From the sequence record NC_027381.1: a stretch of 64,000 nucleotides of DNA; one strand, given 5' to 3'. This document shows positions 53,703 through 61,119 of the stretch, piece by piece (within the stretch, counting starts at the first letter, position 1; each line of letters starts with the position of its first letter). The notes under the pieces were generated by a model, which did no database searches, was not told the DNA's origin, and saw only the letters and a list, made by a program, of their open reading frames with translations. Origin of the DNA: Escherichia phage Pollock. The translations under genes were made by a program, and so were the position numbers.

Positions 53703-54203
53703 ATGTCTCGTGATATTTCAAATAATGGATTGAAATTTACTGCTGCTTGGGAACAGTTAAGAACCAAAGCATATAGAGCTACACAAAATGAGAAGTACCT
53801 AACGATAGGGTATGGTCACTACGGTCCTGATGTTAAACCGGGTGACACTATCACTGCTGATGGTGCTTTAAATTTACTGTACAAGGATATGGCTAAAGCT
53901 GTTCGTAAAGCATCAGAATTAGTTCATCCATCTTTTAATCAAGCTCAATTCGATGCCATTGTAGACCTATGTTTTAACGTAGGTATTGGTGTTATCGAAA
54001 AAGATAATGTTCTTGGTGATTTCGATGATGCTGTTCGTTTAGGGGATATTCCCAAAGCCAGAGAAATCATGGGGCAATTTATCTATCAAAATAAAAAACC
54101 ATTATTAGGATTAAAAAGACGAGCAGTAGGACGTATTGCTCTGTTTGATGGTAAGTCTTGGTTAGAAGCAGAAGCTATCGGGAGAGGAGTTAAATCTCTA
54201 TGA
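53703..54203 (+). CDS. Endolysin, GH24 (T4-type lysozyme family)
   Basis: GLKFTAAWEQLRTKAYRATQNEKYLTIGYGH and QAQFDAIVDLCFNVG match lysozyme-family conserved regions (catalytic Glu region, TIGYGH, DALvs.aFN.G). Confidence 0.8.
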   Translation: MSRDISNNGLKFTAAWEQLRTKAYRATQNEKYLTIGYGHYGPDVKPGDTITADGALNLLYKDMAKAVRKASELVHPSFNQAQFDAIVDLCFNVGIGVIEKDNVLGDFDDAVRLGDIPKAREIMGQFIYQNKKPLLGLKRRAVGRIALFDGKSWLEAEAIGRGVKSL

Positions 54204-54748
54204 TAAATAAAACCAAGTTATTAATGCTTGGTTTGACTGCTATAGCTCTCACTTCGGTGGGAGCTTTTTTATCTTGGTATATAGCCAGTAATAAGTATGA
54301 ATATGAAATAGCTATATTAAAGTCAGATTACAGTCTGAAATTAAAAGCTATATCAGATGAAGCAGCATTCAAACTAGGTAATGAAATAGTACGTAATAAC
54401 CAACTACAACAAGAATTGAATGAATTAGATTCTAAATATTATAGAGATTTAGAGTATGAAAAAGAACGTAATAAACAACTTAGCATTGATGTTAGTAATG
54501 GTACTCGTAGGGTGCAATTCGCAGAAACAAGTCTTGCAACCTGTAAGCAATCCAGAAATACAGGAACAATCTCCCCCAGCATGGGTAATGGAACCACCAT
54601 CGAACTCTCTCCAATTGCTGGACAAAACATTCTCAATATCCGAGAAGGAATTATTGCAGACCAAATTAAATTGAGATATTTACAAGATTACATTCGTAAA
54701 GTAGAGGCATCCAGATATGGCAAAACTAACATCCAAACAAAGAAATAA
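54200..54748 (+). CDS. i-spanin (Rz-like)
   Basis: N-terminal transmembrane helix LLMLGLTAIALTSVGAFLSWYIA followed by a charged coiled-coil-like periplasmic domain; directly downstream of the endolysin. Confidence 0.6.
   Translation: MINKTKLLMLGLTAIALTSVGAFLSWYIASNKYEYEIAILKSDYSLKLKAISDEAAFKLGNEIVRNNQLQQELNELDSKYYRDLEYEKERNKQLSIDVSNGTRRVQFAETSLATCKQSRNTGTISPSMGNGTTIELSPIAGQNILNIREGIIADQIKLRYLQDYIRKVEASRYGKTNIQTKK
54456..54674 (+). CDS. o-spanin (Rz1-like lipoprotein) embedded in the Rz frame
   Basis: Fully nested in an alternate frame of the Rz-like gene; signal peptide with lipobox LVGC (MKKNVINNLALMLVMVLVGCNS); Pro-rich mature part. Confidence 0.6.
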   Translation: MKKNVINNLALMLVMVLVGCNSQKQVLQPVSNPEIQEQSPPAWVMEPPSNSLQLLDKTFSISEKELLQTKLN

Positions 54749-54917
54749 ACTTCCTGATTCAGCTTTTGCTGGTCCAGATAGGAGTTATCCGGTACATGAT
54801 AAAGCTCATGCAGCTAATGCTAAAGCTAGAGCAACACAGCAATATGAAGCAGGTAATCTCTCTAAGTCACAAAGAGATAAGATTCGAGCCAGAGCTAATA
54901 AAGTTTTATATGGTTAA
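54717..54917 (+). CDS. Small basic protein, 66 aa
   Basis: ORF followed by a strong bidirectional terminator. Confidence 0.35.
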   Translation: MAKLTSKQRNKLPDSAFAGPDRSYPVHDKAHAANAKARATQQYEAGNLSKSQRDKIRARANKVLYG

Positions 54918-54920
54918 AAT

Positions 54921-54946
54921 AAGCCCCCAAATAAGGGGGCTTTTTA
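54921..54946. terminator. Bidirectional terminator between the lysis cassette and tail fiber genes
   Basis: aagccccc-aaataa-gggggctt stem-loop with an A-run upstream and a T-run downstream. Confidence 0.7.
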
Positions 54947-54950
54947 TTAC

Positions 54951-57806
54951 TTACTTATTCTCAAGTGCATCTATTCTACTAACCAATACATTAACAGTTT
55001 CTGCTAATGAATCAATTTGATTAATAGTAGCTCTCAGACACCACCAAAGAAGTTCTTCTTTTCTAAAGCGATATCGAGTACCTGCTTCTAATGCAGGACG
55101 TACTAGAACTTTTTGAGATTCTCTTACAAGTACTAAGGTTGTACCACTTAATAGCTCTCCTTCATCAGAGTAGATAGCAGGTTGTACAGGTACTTCTTCA
55201 TACTCTGCTGGAATCTCTTCATATTCTGCTTCAACAGCATCCCAAGAATCTAAACAGAAAGCACTGTATTTTCTCCAATCCAGTCCATGTTTAGTCATGA
55301 TATCAATTGCTGCTTGCACAGTAGGACCAGAATGTAATCTGGCATCATCACCTTCTTCTTCAATTCGTTGTAACCATCTCCATACAGAAGGTAAACGAGC
55401 TATTTCTGCAAATGCAGCAATCTCTGATGAATTGATATCTCTTGGTTCATCTTTCAATGTTGCATCAGATACAACAGTCGGTGAATTATTAAAGTAAGCA
55501 TTACTGAATGCTTTACTAGAAGAACCAATATTATAGGTATTGTTAGTTGAAGGTAAGAAGTTACCTTTAATATCTGTATCCATCTGCATGAATGCAGTGC
55601 CGTTACTACGGGCTGCAATTACATAAGCGTCAGCAGAATCGTCATAAATACCCAGATTCCCGGATGTTGATACCTGGAAAGCTCCCGCCTTCAGCGTGGT
55701 ACTGATAGTCATGCGCTTCTGGGTTTTGTCATCCGATTTAATATTCACGCCCTGCAGGTATGCCACATTCCAGCGATTTGGCGATGACCCCAGATTCATT
55801 GCCTTGTCCTGGTCGGGATGAAATGACGGCGAGACCGGACTCAATAATACAGACCAGGTCTCGCTGCCATCGGTACAATAAAGCCTTGTGCGCCCCGCCG
55901 ACTGAGTATCGTTCATTGAGTAAAGGTTAATCCCGCCACCGCTCAACAAATTCACGTCAGCGCGTATTTCCAGACAATCGTGCACGGCGTTCAGGCGGTG
56001 TTTCCACTGAACGAAGCGGCCTGTGTATTCTCCGGTTCGGAACGCATCCCCGAACAAACGAAAAACAGCAGCAGAAGTGTCTGTATCCGGAGCCTCCTTT
56101 CTGACCTCAAATAACGGGCGATGCGAGCGCAGATTCTGCTCATAGGCTGCCACCTGGAAGTCTTCATTGGGTGACAGGGCAATATTTACAGCATTGGGAC
56201 ATAGAAAAAGACTGGCATGACTATCAGGATAAGCTACACCAAAAATTGAATACCCAGTACCATCATAAGGTTCTACAGAGACAATAGCTTTAGTACGCTT
56301 TGTTCTTGTACCACGAGTATAAGTCTTTGTTGAATCCCATTGACTTGCATTACTTGTTCCATAAGTAGTAGGTGTCCAATAAGTTGGGTTTACTGGAGAA
56401 TACCCGGAAAAATTAGCTGTTCTTGCAGCAAAGTATTTTCCTTCAAATAAAACAACATCTGCTGTGGCATACCAAAAATCCATATCAAGCAGATATAGTT
56501 TACCTTTATATAAAGCTAATCCTTCTGGTTCTTGTAAACATGGATAACCTAATTCTGCATTACCAAGCATTTTCTCACGTCCATACTTAGCACGCACACC
56601 ATCTACATTAAACCATCTAATAATCTCACCTGTGAATAAATTATAAATAACAATACGGTGGGTTAAGAAAACACCATTGTATCCATAATATACATATAGA
56701 TATTGGTCATCACTTGCCATCCCTTGGAAAGATTGAGCCACCATAGGGATATTATTTATATGAAATCTATATTTAAATGTTAAAGAAACACGGTCAAATA
56801 CATAAATTATACGGTGGTCATCTCTGTTATACTGTACGTGAACAGGCTCACCTATAGTTTCAATAACTAATGTTTTACCACTTTCAGATAATGCAAGTGT
56901 GATAATTTCATCGTTGTTATAGAAGTCTGATTTAAATACTTCTACTCTAGTAATATTTGATGTAGTAGTATCTCTTCCTTTCCAATTAATTATATTGATA
57001 CCTTTACTGTCTTCAGTAGGTAAATACAAAATTACACCACCATTCTCATATATAGCCCCGATACTCTGATGACCTATATCTTCAAATACTGGAGAGAAAG
57101 AAATAACAGTAGGGTTTTCATTGTCCCCTTCTGGATTAAATGTTGTTTCAACAATTCTAACTCCACCTGTTACTGGTTGATGGATAAACATACGTAAACC
57201 ATCTGGAGTTTCACAAATACAGAATCCCTGACTTAAATTTTCTGCACCTTCAAAAATTCCTGAATAATCAATATCATGTACAACTTTATGTTGTAGAGCT
57301 ATATTATCAACAATAGGGTTATGTGTTGCTAAAGTTCCTACAGGAACCCATGCACCAACATGAATACCTCCACTTTTTTCTGGAGTAGAATCTGGTTCAA
57401 CTACTTTAGGTAGTTCTCCATCCCATCTATATAAACCAGAAATACTTGTAAGTACTTCATTCTTAGTAGTTATAGTAGTTCCTGTAGTAAATGAACCAGG
57501 TACAGTTATAAACTCTTCTCGTTGTGCCCCTAATTCACCTAAATCTACAGAACCTTGTGAATGTACAAGTACAGCATCAGTACCAAGACTGATGGCAGTA
57601 GTACCAGAAGAAATGTCAGTAGGTAAGGAATAAGCTCTTTGTGTTGTCTTATCATAAATAACCTTATAACCACCTAAATCTACTCCTTCTGAGAAGTAGA
57701 CTACTTCACTCTGTTTAACACCAAACTTACGAGCAATAGCTTGTTTGTTGGTTAAGATTCCAGTTGAACCTCTACCACCTTGGCTGAACATTTCGTTCAT
57801 ATACAC
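54951..57806 (-). CDS. Tail fiber or tailspike with C-terminal intramolecular chaperone (peptidase S74-like) domain
   Basis: C-terminal region contains SDATLKDE (S-D-x-x-x-K cleavage-site motif) and DDARLHSGPTVQAAIDIM (S74-like core); contains a locally GC-rich internal segment. Confidence 0.6.
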   Translation of the reverse strand: MYMNEMFSQGGRGSTGILTNKQAIARKFGVKQSEVVYFSEGVDLGGYKVIYDKTTQRAYSLPTDISSGTTAISLGTDAVLVHSQGSVDLGELGAQREEFITVPGSFTTGTTITTKNEVLTSISGLYRWDGELPKVVEPDSTPEKSGGIHVGAWVPVGTLATHNPIVDNIALQHKVVHDIDYSGIFEGAENLSQGFCICETPDGLRMFIHQPVTGGVRIVETTFNPEGDNENPTVISFSPVFEDIGHQSIGAIYENGGVILYLPTEDSKGINIINWKGRDTTTSNITRVEVFKSDFYNNDEIITLALSESGKTLVIETIGEPVHVQYNRDDHRIIYVFDRVSLTFKYRFHINNIPMVAQSFQGMASDDQYLYVYYGYNGVFLTHRIVIYNLFTGEIIRWFNVDGVRAKYGREKMLGNAELGYPCLQEPEGLALYKGKLYLLDMDFWYATADVVLFEGKYFAARTANFSGYSPVNPTYWTPTTYGTSNASQWDSTKTYTRGTRTKRTKAIVSVEPYDGTGYSIFGVAYPDSHASLFLCPNAVNIALSPNEDFQVAAYEQNLRSHRPLFEVRKEAPDTDTSAAVFRLFGDAFRTGEYTGRFVQWKHRLNAVHDCLEIRADVNLLSGGGINLYSMNDTQSAGRTRLYCTDGSETWSVLLSPVSPSFHPDQDKAMNLGSSPNRWNVAYLQGVNIKSDDKTQKRMTISTTLKAGAFQVSTSGNLGIYDDSADAYVIAARSNGTAFMQMDTDIKGNFLPSTNNTYNIGSSSKAFSNAYFNNSPTVVSDATLKDEPRDINSSEIAAFAEIARLPSVWRWLQRIEEEGDDARLHSGPTVQAAIDIMTKHGLDWRKYSAFCLDSWDAVEAEYEEIPAEYEEVPVQPAIYSDEGELLSGTTLVLVRESQKVLVRPALEAGTRYRFRKEELLWWCLRATINQIDSLAETVNVLVSRIDALENK

Positions 57807-57852
57807 CTCTTTGTTTTTCTAAAAAAATCCCCTCCGAAGAGGGGAGTAAAGC

Positions 57853-60800
57853 TTAGTAAAATTTCTTTTCAGTAGAAGATTCTAAAACAGAAAGACGTTC
57901 TTCTATTCTTTCTAATCTTCTGCGTAGATAAGCAGCCTCAAGCCATAAGCATTGGTCTGCACGTATTCCCCAACGATTACCAGCCTCTCTTACGAGAACT
58001 TTTTCACCAGTATCATATTCTTCCTCTACTTCTGTTTCCACACCATCAATAATGGTAGATACTTTTCTAGTTGCTAATACTGGCTCATAAGAGTCTTCCC
58101 ATTCGTCATAACAAAGAAGACCAAATTTAGTTCCATCTAAACCATGAGCAAGGAAAGCATCTCTTACCTGTTGAGCTATTACACCAAAATGCCAACGAGC
58201 ATCATCATTTTTAAGTTTGATAGCAGAGAGCCAACGGAAAGCTATGATTCTTACATCTTCCCAAGCATCCAGAATTGCATCTCCATCATATTCTGAAGAC
58301 AGAGATGAGCTAAGTTCACTGGTAGTTACTGGCTCTGTTTTCTCTCTTTCATCAGATGTATTTATTGTTCCAGATACAGCATAAACCTGAGTAGGTCTAT
58401 TATCTGCAACACCAAGACTATAGGAGTTATCCAGATAAGGATGCCAATGACCATTTGGACTTACTTTCCATCTCCATGTGTCATTACTTCCCAAATGTAA
58501 ATCAGCTCCATTTGCAGCCATTAAAGCTACATTGGAAGTGCTCATGTACATCTGGAAATAACCAACGCCTTTTCTCTGCCATTCATAAAGCAAGCCTGTT
58601 TCCTGTTCGTTGTTGAACTTTAATGCTTTTATAGGTGAATTTTCTCCCCATGTTGTATCACCCGAATAAATTACATGAGGAACCACCTCAGGATTATCAG
58701 AGATACATATTTCTTTAGATGGTAGAGATAGCGTTCTTTTATCTCCTGCACCAAGCGCATAAATCAGAATGGTGCGTCTGGTTGCCCCCATAACATCAGA
58801 ATGCTCAGATACTATTGTTACCGATGGATATAGAACACCATCGTAATCAACAAAATGCATTCCTTCTGATTCACGGAATGTAGGAGTAGAACCAATGATT
58901 CTAGGTAAATCAGTATCACCTAAATCAGAGATAGCTTTCCGTACATCATTACCTAACAAGTCACAACTGGATAAGTACTGGGTTTGTCCAAATGTAATAT
59001 TCCCGCAATACATATACAGATGCGAGCCATCAGAACAAAATCCACTAAGTGATGTGGTTTCATCACCACCGACTTGTGAAAGTTGAAGAGTAAACTCATG
59101 AGTACACATAGATGAATAATCACCTTGTGTATCAAAAATATCTGTAGAGAAAATGCGGAATGTTTGATTGTTGTAGTCAGCATTATCAGTAAATCTAACA
59201 ATCAACCATTTACCATCAAGAGAAATAGTAGGTGTAGTTGAGCTACCTGCTGTACGAGTTTCTTCTACAACTCTAAACAATTCAGGCGCATCAATTTCAC
59301 CGTCTGTGTTACTTCTCCAAGAAAATCTAACAATCCCGTGAGAACCGCCTACAGAAAAATCAAAATCAGTATGGGTAGTAGAACCTGCTGGTGTATCTGG
59401 TGCTGTAGTCCATAACTTAATTGCATTATTTAAATTCTGTACTGCTATACCCTGATGACCCAATCTGTCTTCAGGTAACATAAAGTCAGTAGAACTATTA
59501 ATAATTCTTGAGTCAGCAGAATACTTATTCCAGATAGAAACAGTAGTGGCATTACCATCTATTTCTGTATTGTGGTTAGAGTAATAAGCCCTATCTACAG
59601 GGTCATATGTGAATGTCTGTAGTGTTCTTATTTGTCCACGACCCTGAGCAATAGGAATGAATCTTACTGCTGAATTAGATTCTCGACCTATAGTATAAAC
59701 ATCCCATGCTGGCTTCTTATTAGTAAGAAGCTCCCCATTCATAGGAATGGATTTTCCGTTTATAAGCCAAGTACCATTAATATAGATATTTTTAAAGAAG
59801 GTTTTAGTAGTGGCATATACTTTGCCATCCATATCTATAACCTTGGATGTAACATCTGATTCTAGTTGCTCAAATGCACTAGTATCATCAGTAACACCAT
59901 TACCTACTATTCCCCATGCACGAGGGTCATACTCATCTTTCCAACGAGCTATCTGTAAATCAGGATATAAAGTAGCACCATCAGGATTACTAATTTTATC
60001 CTGAAGGTCTAAACCAGTAATTACTTCATCTAAGATAACTACTACGTTACCGGGAGTATAAGTAAGTTTTCCATCTGCTACTGTAGAGATATAAACATTT
60101 CTTAAAGCAGTAGGTAACCTATAGATTTTCTGTTCATCTACAGAATAGATAATAGTTTTATTATCTAATGCCTGACTGGTATTAGTACTTAAAATTACTT
60201 CTGAATTTTTTACATTAGTGGCTCTTGCTACCTCTTGAATAGTACGGTCAGCAATCTCAATAACTTCTTGCTCACCTCCAATCTGAATAATCAAACGGTC
60301 ATTAGCAACCAATGGTTCAGTAAGAGTAATGGTTTGAGCATTAGCATCTACAAAGTAGGATTGAGTTTGTAATCCCTTATAGAATCTCAAACCATTCTTA
60401 AATACCGCAGGAATATCCTGAAAGGTATATGGAATATTGATAGTAGTTTCACCACCAACAGCAGCACCTTCATTGTATAACCAGTTAAAAATAGTCCAGT
60501 TATCAATATTTGGATTATCAGGTACAGCAGGAGTACCACTAAGAAGTAAAACTACTTCATCTCCTTCCTCTAAAGCTTGAGATAATGTAACCAAGTTATT
60601 GGAAATAGAGAATTGAAATCCATAACCAACAGATTGCATGTAGCCATTAACAATAATAAATGGAACACTTACAGTTCCATTGGGTACTGTAATAGTAGTT
60701 TCTCCACCTAAAGCAAAGCCACTCTTATAAACATAAGGAATGTAGGAACCACCACCATTTCCACCAGACGAGGATGTACCTACAACAATCCAACTACCTG

Positions 60801-61119
60801 TAGCTCCAGATTCATTAGGAATGATTCCAGAAGTATCGTTTTCTACATACAAATAATCTGTATAGATTATGTAACTAGAATCAAAAGTATTATAGATACG
60901 TGCATACTTGACAGATACAGGAAGTGCTTTTAATTCATCTTCTGAAGTAACACAAATAAGTACTCCATACTTATTTAGAAATTCATAGATAAAGTGAATT
61001 TCTCCTAAGCTATCATATACAGCTTTAACTACGTCATATGCTGTACCAATAAACTTTTCTACTAATGGAGCATTGTTACCACAACAAGTATTAGTAGTTC
61101 TGATTGACATTATACCCAT
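57853..61119 (-). CDS. Tail fiber or tailspike with C-terminal intramolecular chaperone (peptidase S74-like) domain
   Basis: C-terminal SDEREKTE motif and DDARWHFGVIAQQVRDAF (matches the G-x-IAQEV core of S74 chaperone domains); 1088 aa, Gly/Thr/Ser-rich. Confidence 0.65.
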   Translation of the reverse strand: MGIMSIRTTNTCCGNNAPLVEKFIGTAYDVVKAVYDSLGEIHFIYEFLNKYGVLICVTSEDELKALPVSVKYARIYNTFDSSYIIYTDYLYVENDTSGIIPNESGATGSWIVVGTSSSGGNGGGSYIPYVYKSGFALGGETTITVPNGTVSVPFIIVNGYMQSVGYGFQFSISNNLVTLSQALEEGDEVVLLLSGTPAVPDNPNIDNWTIFNWLYNEGAAVGGETTINIPYTFQDIPAVFKNGLRFYKGLQTQSYFVDANAQTITLTEPLVANDRLIIQIGGEQEVIEIADRTIQEVARATNVKNSEVILSTNTSQALDNKTIIYSVDEQKIYRLPTALRNVYISTVADGKLTYTPGNVVVILDEVITGLDLQDKISNPDGATLYPDLQIARWKDEYDPRAWGIVGNGVTDDTSAFEQLESDVTSKVIDMDGKVYATTKTFFKNIYINGTWLINGKSIPMNGELLTNKKPAWDVYTIGRESNSAVRFIPIAQGRGQIRTLQTFTYDPVDRAYYSNHNTEIDGNATTVSIWNKYSADSRIINSSTDFMLPEDRLGHQGIAVQNLNNAIKLWTTAPDTPAGSTTHTDFDFSVGGSHGIVRFSWRSNTDGEIDAPELFRVVEETRTAGSSTTPTISLDGKWLIVRFTDNADYNNQTFRIFSTDIFDTQGDYSSMCTHEFTLQLSQVGGDETTSLSGFCSDGSHLYMYCGNITFGQTQYLSSCDLLGNDVRKAISDLGDTDLPRIIGSTPTFRESEGMHFVDYDGVLYPSVTIVSEHSDVMGATRRTILIYALGAGDKRTLSLPSKEICISDNPEVVPHVIYSGDTTWGENSPIKALKFNNEQETGLLYEWQRKGVGYFQMYMSTSNVALMAANGADLHLGSNDTWRWKVSPNGHWHPYLDNSYSLGVADNRPTQVYAVSGTINTSDEREKTEPVTTSELSSSLSSEYDGDAILDAWEDVRIIAFRWLSAIKLKNDDARWHFGVIAQQVRDAFLAHGLDGTKFGLLCYDEWEDSYEPVLATRKVSTIIDGVETEVEEEYDTGEKVLVREAGNRWGIRADQCLWLEAAYLRRRLERIEERLSVLESSTEKKFY

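Follow-up and report, generated by a model that had tools for sequence, protein, structure and literature searches.

Two adjacent tailspikes of Escherichia phage Pollock as a probable branched receptor-binding complex with propeller bodies and S74 chaperones

Among the tailspike systems described so far, the pair gp49/gp48 of Shigella phage B2 (Humphriesvirinae, Ithacavirus; 9D83/9D84) is close to the one analyzed here. The two B2 proteins co-purified and were solved as a complex (PMC11654681); gp49 is a 410-amino-acid (aa) stub that lacks its own spike, and gp48, an esterase tailspike, has no S74 chaperone domain. In Gamaleyavirus G7C (gp66/gp63.1) and in CBA120 (TSP4/TSP1), an anchor protein with XD2 and XD3 domains is combined with a branch protein that starts with a D1-D2 head, and each of the two has its own receptor-binding body, an SGNH esterase in gp63.1 and beta-helix glycosidases in the TSPs. 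Binding of gp63.1 to gp66 requires the XD3 of gp66, and CBA120 TSP1 binds the XD3 of TSP4 (PMC8825819). Here, we describe two adjacent tailspike genes in a window of 64,000 nucleotides (nt) from Escherichia phage Pollock (NC_027381.1). The region probably constitutes a host-recognition module that encodes a two-branched receptor-binding complex, with both spikes matured by S74 chaperones.

The N4-like podovirus Pollock was isolated on enterotoxigenic Escherichia coli (PMC4319500) and is the sole named member of Pollockvirus in the Humphriesvirinae (PMC11654681), a placement that we also obtained (Schitoviridae, Humphriesvirinae). Its genome announcement is silent on both tailspike genes (PMC4319500). 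We refer to the downstream protein, the putative branch, as P1 and to the upstream protein, the putative anchor, as P2. Pollock shares with B2 the subfamily, the gene order, and a 234-aa adaptor; unlike in B2, the anchor appears to continue into a complete spike, the second of the pair, and each spike carries a predicted propeller and an S74 domain. Relative to G7C and CBA120, the docking architecture is alike and the receptor-binding bodies differ, being propellers in Pollock; CBA120 differs further in having four spikes on a myovirus baseplate. A pair of spikes that both end in Peptidase_S74 is also found in the N4-like Gamaleyavirus phages UE-M3/UE-S5 and PBM-2/PBM-3, which combine a gp66-like anchor with a Tail_spike_N branch; in the UE phages, both tailspike proteins were among the particle-associated proteins (PMC11927229). 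There the anchor body is a K1 endosialidase with a six-bladed propeller (in UE-M3, End_beta_propel 681 bits and End_beta_barrel 142 bits). A double-S74 pair of anchor and branch is thus not very unusual, the arrangement being already known in N4-like phages.

Docking domains of the probable anchor and branch

The assignment of the two roles follows from the N-termini. An anchor has a virion-binding N-terminus followed by T4 gp10-like XD2 and XD3 domains, and this is the order found in P2. Over aa 6–368, P2 aligns with both B2 gp49 (PDB 9d83, E 2e-140) and the N-terminal part of Moo19 gp82 (9d80, E 8e-119); aa 138–283 match residues 196–334 of CBA120 TSP4-N, which span XD2-XD3 (7rfo/7rej, E ∼1e-11), and aa 126–363 match 6w4q. 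(Here and below, the aa numbers of subparts follow the 951-aa and 1088-aa reading frames discussed in the last section.) In the virion map of B2, tailspike residues 10–74 were modeled on the tail beside the 234-residue adaptor (PMC11654681). A branch starts with a D1-D2 head, as P1 does: aa 3–162 align with CBA120 TSP1 (4oj5, E 6e-69) and G7C gp63.1 (4qnl, E 2e-57), aa 3–156 with B2 gp48 (9d84, E 7e-63), and aa 10–159 also with residues 295–461 of Moo19 gp82. The N-terminal regions of the two Pollock proteins had been called unrelated in an earlier note on this DNA, which was made from the sequence alone, and this needs correction in one place: P1 aa 22–87 are weakly similar to P2 aa 295–359 (33% identity, E 0.001).

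The order terminase, adaptor, anchor, branch is common to Pollock, Salmonella phage FSL SP-076, UE-M3, PBM-2, and a Pollock-like metagenome contig, as judged from a comparison of maps of open reading frames (ORFs). Because the N-termini are homologous to those of an established assembly and this gene order is shared, we prefer a branched arrangement in which P2 is the anchor and P1 the branch, and P1 and P2 almost certainly form a two-branched receptor-binding complex by this comparative analysis. The earlier note had offered either two receptor specificities or a branched fiber apparatus; the latter is the better supported of the two, with P2 resembling a gp49-type XD2-XD3 anchor and P1 bearing a head of the TSP1/gp63.1/gp48 kind.

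We also considered that P1 and P2 attach to the tail independently, or as alternatives at the same sites, which would give two unbranched kinds of spike. A terminator-like hairpin between the genes (Table 1) could uncouple their expression, and Moo19 has a separate gp66-like appendage elsewhere on its tail (PMC11654681). Nevertheless, P1 is without an anchor-type N-terminus, its first 157 residues corresponding to the head that, in CBA120, G7C, and B2, is seated on XD3-type platforms, and P2 retains both XD2 and XD3; independent attachment is therefore highly improbable.

S74 chaperones and stalk tips

Both proteins had been proposed to end in self-cleaving chaperone domains of the S74 type, and a profile search bears this out. 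With a gathering score of 22 bits, the Pfam profile Peptidase_S74 (PF13884) matches P1 aa 780–842 (37.3 bits, E 3e-9) and P2 aa 922–993 (41 bits, E 2e-10), with the domains making up the final 172 residues of P1 and the final 167 of P2. The homology of the C-termini also stands, as they align with each other across 186 aa (28% identity, E 7e-14). Within P2, the final 209 residues match the chaperone of endosialidase NF (endoNF; 3gw6, E 7e-37, chain residues 93–274 of 275), and the same C-terminus matches the neck appendage of GA-1 (3gud) and T5 pb1 (4uw8). For P1, the last 217 residues match 9vvr (E 3e-18), 7y5s (E 3e-17), 4uw8 (E 2e-16), and 3gw6 (E 8e-9), as well as 6eu4 (in the range of E 1e-16 to 1e-18).

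The cleavage sites pointed out in the earlier note, SDATLK in P1 (aa 780–785) and SDEREK in P2 (aa 922–927), are real, and the S74 matches as a whole go far beyond chance. The two sites fall on "ANGERK" of 3gw6 and "ADARLK" of 4uw8, both of which are Ser-to-Ala constructs; the Ala of these constructs falls on Ser780 of P1 and Ser922 of P2, and their catalytic Lys on Lys785 and Lys927 (S911A and K916 in endoNF numbering). SDxxxK is present in every S74-annotated homolog (10 out of 21 aligned), and the other 11 have neither the annotation nor the motif. Given the profile matches and the in-register Ser and Lys, both proteins have what the sequence of an active chaperone-protease requires. Pollock shares with endoNF (3GW6), T5 pb1 (4UW8), and MEROPS family S74 the domain, the Ser-x4-Lys dyad, and the place after a trimeric stalk tip; it differs from endoNF and T5 pb1 in its receptor-binding bodies, and its cleavage is predicted.

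In P2, the S74 domain directly follows the stalk tip. The mature T5 pb1 fiber tips 4uw7 and 5aq5 align with P2 up to aa 921, and aa 890–921 align with the end of the Pfam profile End_tail_spike (positions 129–160 of 160; 18.5 bits, below the cut-off of 25), such that both the tips and the profile end at the residue before the Ser. P1 has a stalk-tip motif twice, at aa 658–700 (55692–55889, minus strand) and at aa 748–785 (55407–55604, minus strand), the two copies being similar at E 0.001. The internal copy reads FHPDQDKAMNLGSSPNRWNVAYLQ...SDDKTQK, and the real cleavage site reads FLPSTNNTYNIGSSSKAFSNAYF...SDATLK. The internal copy is also present in homologs and may be a relic of an older fusion point.

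The S74 domain is released in the characterized members endoNF, T5 pb1, and GA-1 gp12, and the phi92 record annotates a matured endosialidase. From these family members we infer that P1 and P2 autocleave as well. Alternatively, one or both domains could be inactive and stay in the mature spike as a folding or trimerization module or as a distal tip. The greater divergence of the P1 domain, which matches 3gw6 at E 8e-9 in an alignment that ends near residue 200 of 275, would fit such retention, as would PDB entry 9vvr, an 843-aa tail spike chain that still has this domain. We consider retention improbable, as both proteins and all S74-annotated homologs have Ser and Lys exactly where the catalytic residues lie, and release is what is known of the characterized members. 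The P1 chaperone aligns to its end with the profile of the P2 family.

Two homologs of the P1 propeller (800 and 793 aa; P0058 and P0059) have neither an S74 domain nor SDxxxK, and P0059 has a Tail_spike_N head. The same propeller body may fold with or without a chaperone; alternatively, the two genes may have been called too short.

Predicted propeller bodies and the proposed complex

P1 and P2 both match a single unannotated PHROG family, phrog_16355. To compare the central regions, we built alignments from database homologs, trimmed them to the central part, and aligned them with hhalign. P1 aa 241–452 and P2 aa 550–777 aligned with a probability of 95.7% (E 1e-8, 25% identity, 199 columns), so that, at the level of remote homology, the central regions are not the unrelated sequences that they had been taken for. 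Motifs common to both are GHQ, DGK, G-x-x-S/C-D-x-x-Y/H-L-Y, and E-P/S-E-G.

The predicted fold is a five-bladed beta-propeller in both cases. The top fold matches of both models are the receptor-binding proteins (RBPs) of phi11, 80alpha, P68, and NF5, which are five-bladed; next after these phage RBPs come mostly five-bladed glycoside hydrolases (GH43, GH32, GH62) and glutaminyl cyclases. The AlphaFold2 (AF2) model of the P2 propeller is moderately confident between aa 559 and 778, with block means of 54–88, and Foldseek ranks the 80alpha, phi11, P68, and NF5 RBPs at the top (E 7e-12 to 4e-9). Beyond aa ∼559–778 the P2 model is poor, and only that stretch was interpreted.

Sequence intermediates point the same way. 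A joint profile of both Pollock propellers retrieved 356 cluster representatives among 1.84 billion, and a sample of 60 remote matches contained Phage_RBD_prop in 49 (E down to 9e-29), Peptidase_S74 in 18, and End_N_terminal in 14. Against solved structures, the joint profile gave a marginal match to the P68 fiber only (E 0.03), with EPEG and D-G-x-x-L-Y shared. The link to phi11-type RBPs thus comes from the predicted fold and from sequence intermediates rather than from direct sequence similarity, and the Pollock propellers are distant relatives of the Phage_RBD_prop fold, not members of the family by the Pfam criterion. The RBPs of phi11 (Gp45), 80alpha, P68, and Brochothrix phage NF5 (PF21311) differ from the Pollock spikes in their Gram-positive hosts, coiled-coil stems, and C-terminal "tower" domains, and they are without S74. 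To our knowledge, the phi11-like five-bladed propeller has so far been described structurally only in RBPs of phages with Gram-positive hosts.

Taken together, sequence and models suggest that both spikes are composed of a neck, a five-bladed propeller, a stalk, and an S74 domain, a layout that would parallel that of endosialidases with a different propeller. The neck of P2 matches residues 212–299 of the tailspike 9vvr (aa 370–457) and Dpo31 (aa 374–467). Two other kinds of body were considered and rejected. Endosialidase identity was dismissed since the neck and the stalk tip give only subthreshold matches and the Pfam domains End_beta_propel and End_beta_barrel are absent from both proteins. 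Beta-helix depolymerase or SGNH esterase bodies of the CBA120, G7C, and B2 type were dismissed since the central regions have no such matches in Pfam or PDB.

The propellers might be enzymes; P1 and P2 would then be true tailspikes acting on O-antigen or capsule by cleavage or modification, and not sugar-binding lectin platforms. A His, a Gln, an Asp, and two Glu (in GHQ and ExEG) show little or no variation across both propeller families, which are only ∼20% identical, and across remote homologs; the glycoside hydrolases and cyclases among the fold neighbors and the endosialidase-like order of neck, propeller, stalk, and S74 point in the same direction. On the other hand, neither protein matches a glycosidase, lyase, or esterase family in Pfam, and the conserved residues may serve the structure or bind sugar. 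The phi11 propeller has been proposed to hold a pocket that binds N-acetylglucosamine, and the word "enzymatic" does not occur in that text (PMC4901313). An enzymatic role is possible, and we hold it to be the less probable one. A wider version of the idea is more doubtful still: the phi11-like propeller would be a widespread polysaccharide-cleaving or -modifying module of S74-matured enterobacterial tailspikes, and Pollock would have two diverged copies on one branched complex, with two O-antigen or capsule specificities.

We propose the following working model for the branched complex. The first ∼125 residues of P2 would bind the tail at the 234-aa adaptor, and its XD2 and XD3 jellyrolls would form a trimeric docking platform; the remainder of P2 would be a spike in its own right, with a neck, a five-bladed beta-propeller, and a short stalk. 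The TSP1/gp63.1-type head of P1 (aa 3–157) would dock on the anchor, most likely on XD3, and P1 would carry another propeller that has the fold of the first and has diverged from it. In each protein, the S74 chaperone would nucleate folding of the stalk and trimerization and then cut itself off at the Ser (Ser922 in P2, Ser780 in P1), using the Lys five residues downstream, to leave mature spikes of ∼918 aa (P2) and ∼777 aa (P1). The surface polysaccharide bound by one propeller would differ from that bound by the other, and the propellers might modify or cleave these ligands as well. Two receptor specificities are plausible because the propeller sequences are only ∼25% identical.

Several points weigh against this model. 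The Pfam family Phage_RBD_prop (PF21311; cut-off 23.7) gave only 13.6 bits for P1 (E 0.053) and no match for P2. The model of the P2 propeller has low confidence overall, with a mean pLDDT (predicted local distance difference test) of 58. The P1 chaperone matches endoNF over only about its first two-thirds by phmmer, and XD2 has no known role even in G7C (PMC8825819). Finally, the intergenic hairpin could cause the branch to be expressed less than the anchor, a poor fit with a strict 1:1 complex.

Gene signals, neighborhood, and distribution

Features of the region are listed in Table 1. The ORF map of the window has minus-strand ORFs at 54951–57806 (951 aa) and 57853–61119 (1088 aa), as the earlier note had it; these coordinates and lengths hold for the ORFs, and the starts lie a few codons too far upstream for the genes. 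For P1, GTG 57806 sits within the Shine–Dalgarno sequence AGAGG (57810–57806) and ATG 57800 follows at proper spacing. All solved homologs of P1 start with MNEMF or MNQLF at the residue encoded by ATG 57800. From the placement of AGAGG and the N-termini of the homologs, we set the start of P1 at ATG 57800 (949 aa). For P2, ATG 61119 has zero spacer after GAGG, and ATG 61110 has GAGG 9 nt upstream; this spacing and the overlap with the preceding stop place the start at ATG 61110 (1085 aa). Read from there, P2 agrees in 1085/1085 residues with the record YP_009152177.1, named "tail spike protein [Escherichia phage Pollock]." An exact look-up in a collection of 15 billion proteins found P2 and did not find P1, whether read as 949 or as 951 aa; the P1 of this window may differ from the deposited genome, or the deposited start of P1 may differ.

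Table 1. Positions of the tailspike genes, their domains, and nearby features in the window
Feature	Coordinates	Strand	Basis
Anchor tailspike P2, 1085 aa	57853..61110	-	Exact match YP_009152177.1; GAGG 9 nt upstream
P2 N-terminal virion-anchor domain, aa 4–125	60745..61110	-	B2 gp49 and Moo19 gp82 alignment
P2 XD2 + XD3 jellyroll docking domains, ∼aa 126–283	60271..60744	-	CBA120 TSP4-N match
P2 head-D1-like domain, aa 294–368	60016..60240	-	Weak likeness to P1 aa 22–87
P2 neck, endosialidase N-terminal-extension-like, aa 370–460	59740..60012	-	Pfam End_N_terminal 13.5 bits, subthreshold
P2 predicted five-bladed beta-propeller, receptor-binding, aa 463–798	58726..59733	-	AF2 model and Foldseek; homologous to P1 propeller
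P2 distal stalk, ends in conserved pre-cleavage motif, aa 799–921	58357..58725	-	End_tail_spike and T5 pb1 tips
P2 S74 intramolecular chaperone, aa 922–1088	57856..58356	-	PF13884; Ser922 codon 58354–58356, Lys927 codon 58339–58341
Branch tailspike P1, 949 aa	54951..57800	-	phrog_19921 "tail spike protein," 1917 bits
P1 N-terminal head D1-D2, docking module, aa 3–157	57336..57800	-	Tail_spike_N (PF18668) 64.6 bits
P1 predicted five-bladed beta-propeller, receptor-binding, aa 166–476	56379..57311	-	
P1 middle beta-rich region and distal stalk with internal stalk-tip repeat, aa 477–779	55470..56378	-	Model of low to moderate confidence
P1 S74 intramolecular chaperone, aa 780–951	54954..55469	-	PF13884; Ser780 codon 55467–55469, Lys785 codon 55452–55454
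Tail adaptor protein, 234 aa	61110..61814	-	phrog_2125 "virion structural protein," E 9e-85; weak SU10_adaptor match
GC-rich hairpin CCCCTCTTCGGAGGGG and T7 run, terminator-like, between P2 stop and P1 start	57821..57845	-	Terminator scan; free energy (dG) -14 kcal/mol, z -2.35
Hairpin, terminator on both strands, ends tailspike operon facing convergent lysis cassette	54921..54942	both	Terminator scan; dG -16.8 and -15.7 kcal/mol

The stop of the adaptor gene overlaps the start of P2 as TAATG (61108–61112), which suggests translational coupling of adaptor and anchor. The adaptor is equal in length and position to the "adaptor protein" of UE-M3 and PBM-2, and adaptor gp50 of B2 likewise has 234 residues (PMC11654681); it is presumed to be the attachment site of the anchor tailspike. 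The intergenic hairpin could determine how much anchor is made per branch, or it could stabilize the upstream mRNA. Its stem is kept with an altered loop in the Pollock-like contig (L004, 7950–7982), and the hairpin is also kept in FSL SP-076 with a degraded T-run (L001, 6478–6510). The leader AGAAAAACAAAGAGGT (57801–57820; L002, 7775–7795) and the first codons of the branch gene, ATGAACGAAATGTT, hardly differ among Pollock, Ithacavirus, and Gamaleyavirus UE-M3, and the genes that flank the leader have diverged between them. The leader may mark a conserved boundary at which recombination swaps branch spikes, and conservation of both hairpin and leader in relatives fits a conserved cassette boundary.

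On one side the tailspike pair is flanked by the lysis cassette and the portal gene and on the other by the genes for the 234-aa structural protein and the large terminase. Structural genes near the tailspikes have ∼81% DNA identity to the Salmonella Ithacavirus phages FSL SP-058 and SP-076. Together with the exact match of P2, this identifies the window as Pollock or an isolate almost identical to it. In the lysis cassette, the Rz1 outer-membrane spanin (54456–54674, plus strand; lipobox LVGC) lies in another frame within the Rz gene (54200–54748), an embedding also stated in the Pollock genome paper (PMC4319500). A Lys/Arg/Ala-rich ORF of 66 aa (54717–54917, plus strand) overlaps the end of the Rz gene and has a weak, sub-cut-off match to DUF6582 (18.5 bits); its position is kept in FSL SP-076 and in the Pollock-like contig.

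In a phage collection that apparently does not contain Pollock, no DNA relative of the tailspike region exceeded 10% coverage, and the matches were to module junctions only. The Pollock-like contig, a 40-kb metagenome sequence, has the same pair of anchor and branch with S74 on both. A tblastn search with the P2 chaperone at E 1e-8 found two places in ∼6 of the 402 matching records, a lower bound given that this search would miss domains as diverged as that of P1. The receptor-binding-plus-chaperone cassette of P1 recurs at 50%–86% identity behind P2-like tail-collar, T7-like, and TSP1-like N-termini, and that of the anchor recurs at 40%–85% identity behind P22 head-binding and TSP1-like N-termini. 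Such recurrence behind varied N-termini points to independent acquisition of both cassettes and not to local duplication.

We see one mildly fresh point in these data and no new principle: By sequence and structure models, the bodies of both spikes appear to be phi11-type propellers matured by S74 chaperones. For annotation, such propeller bodies would be a poorly labeled class of receptor-binding modules in phages of Gram-negative bacteria. For engineering, the locus offers natural swap points at the end of the docking head (∼aa 157), at the end of the anchor (∼aa 368), and at the cleavage serines. More broadly, an N4-like phage would build a dual-specificity adsorption device from interchangeable parts, a conserved anchor or docking head joined to a propeller-stalk-S74 cassette, and closely related cassettes follow N-termini of the P2-like, T7-like, P22-like, and TSP1-like kinds in further phages and prophages of E. 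coli.

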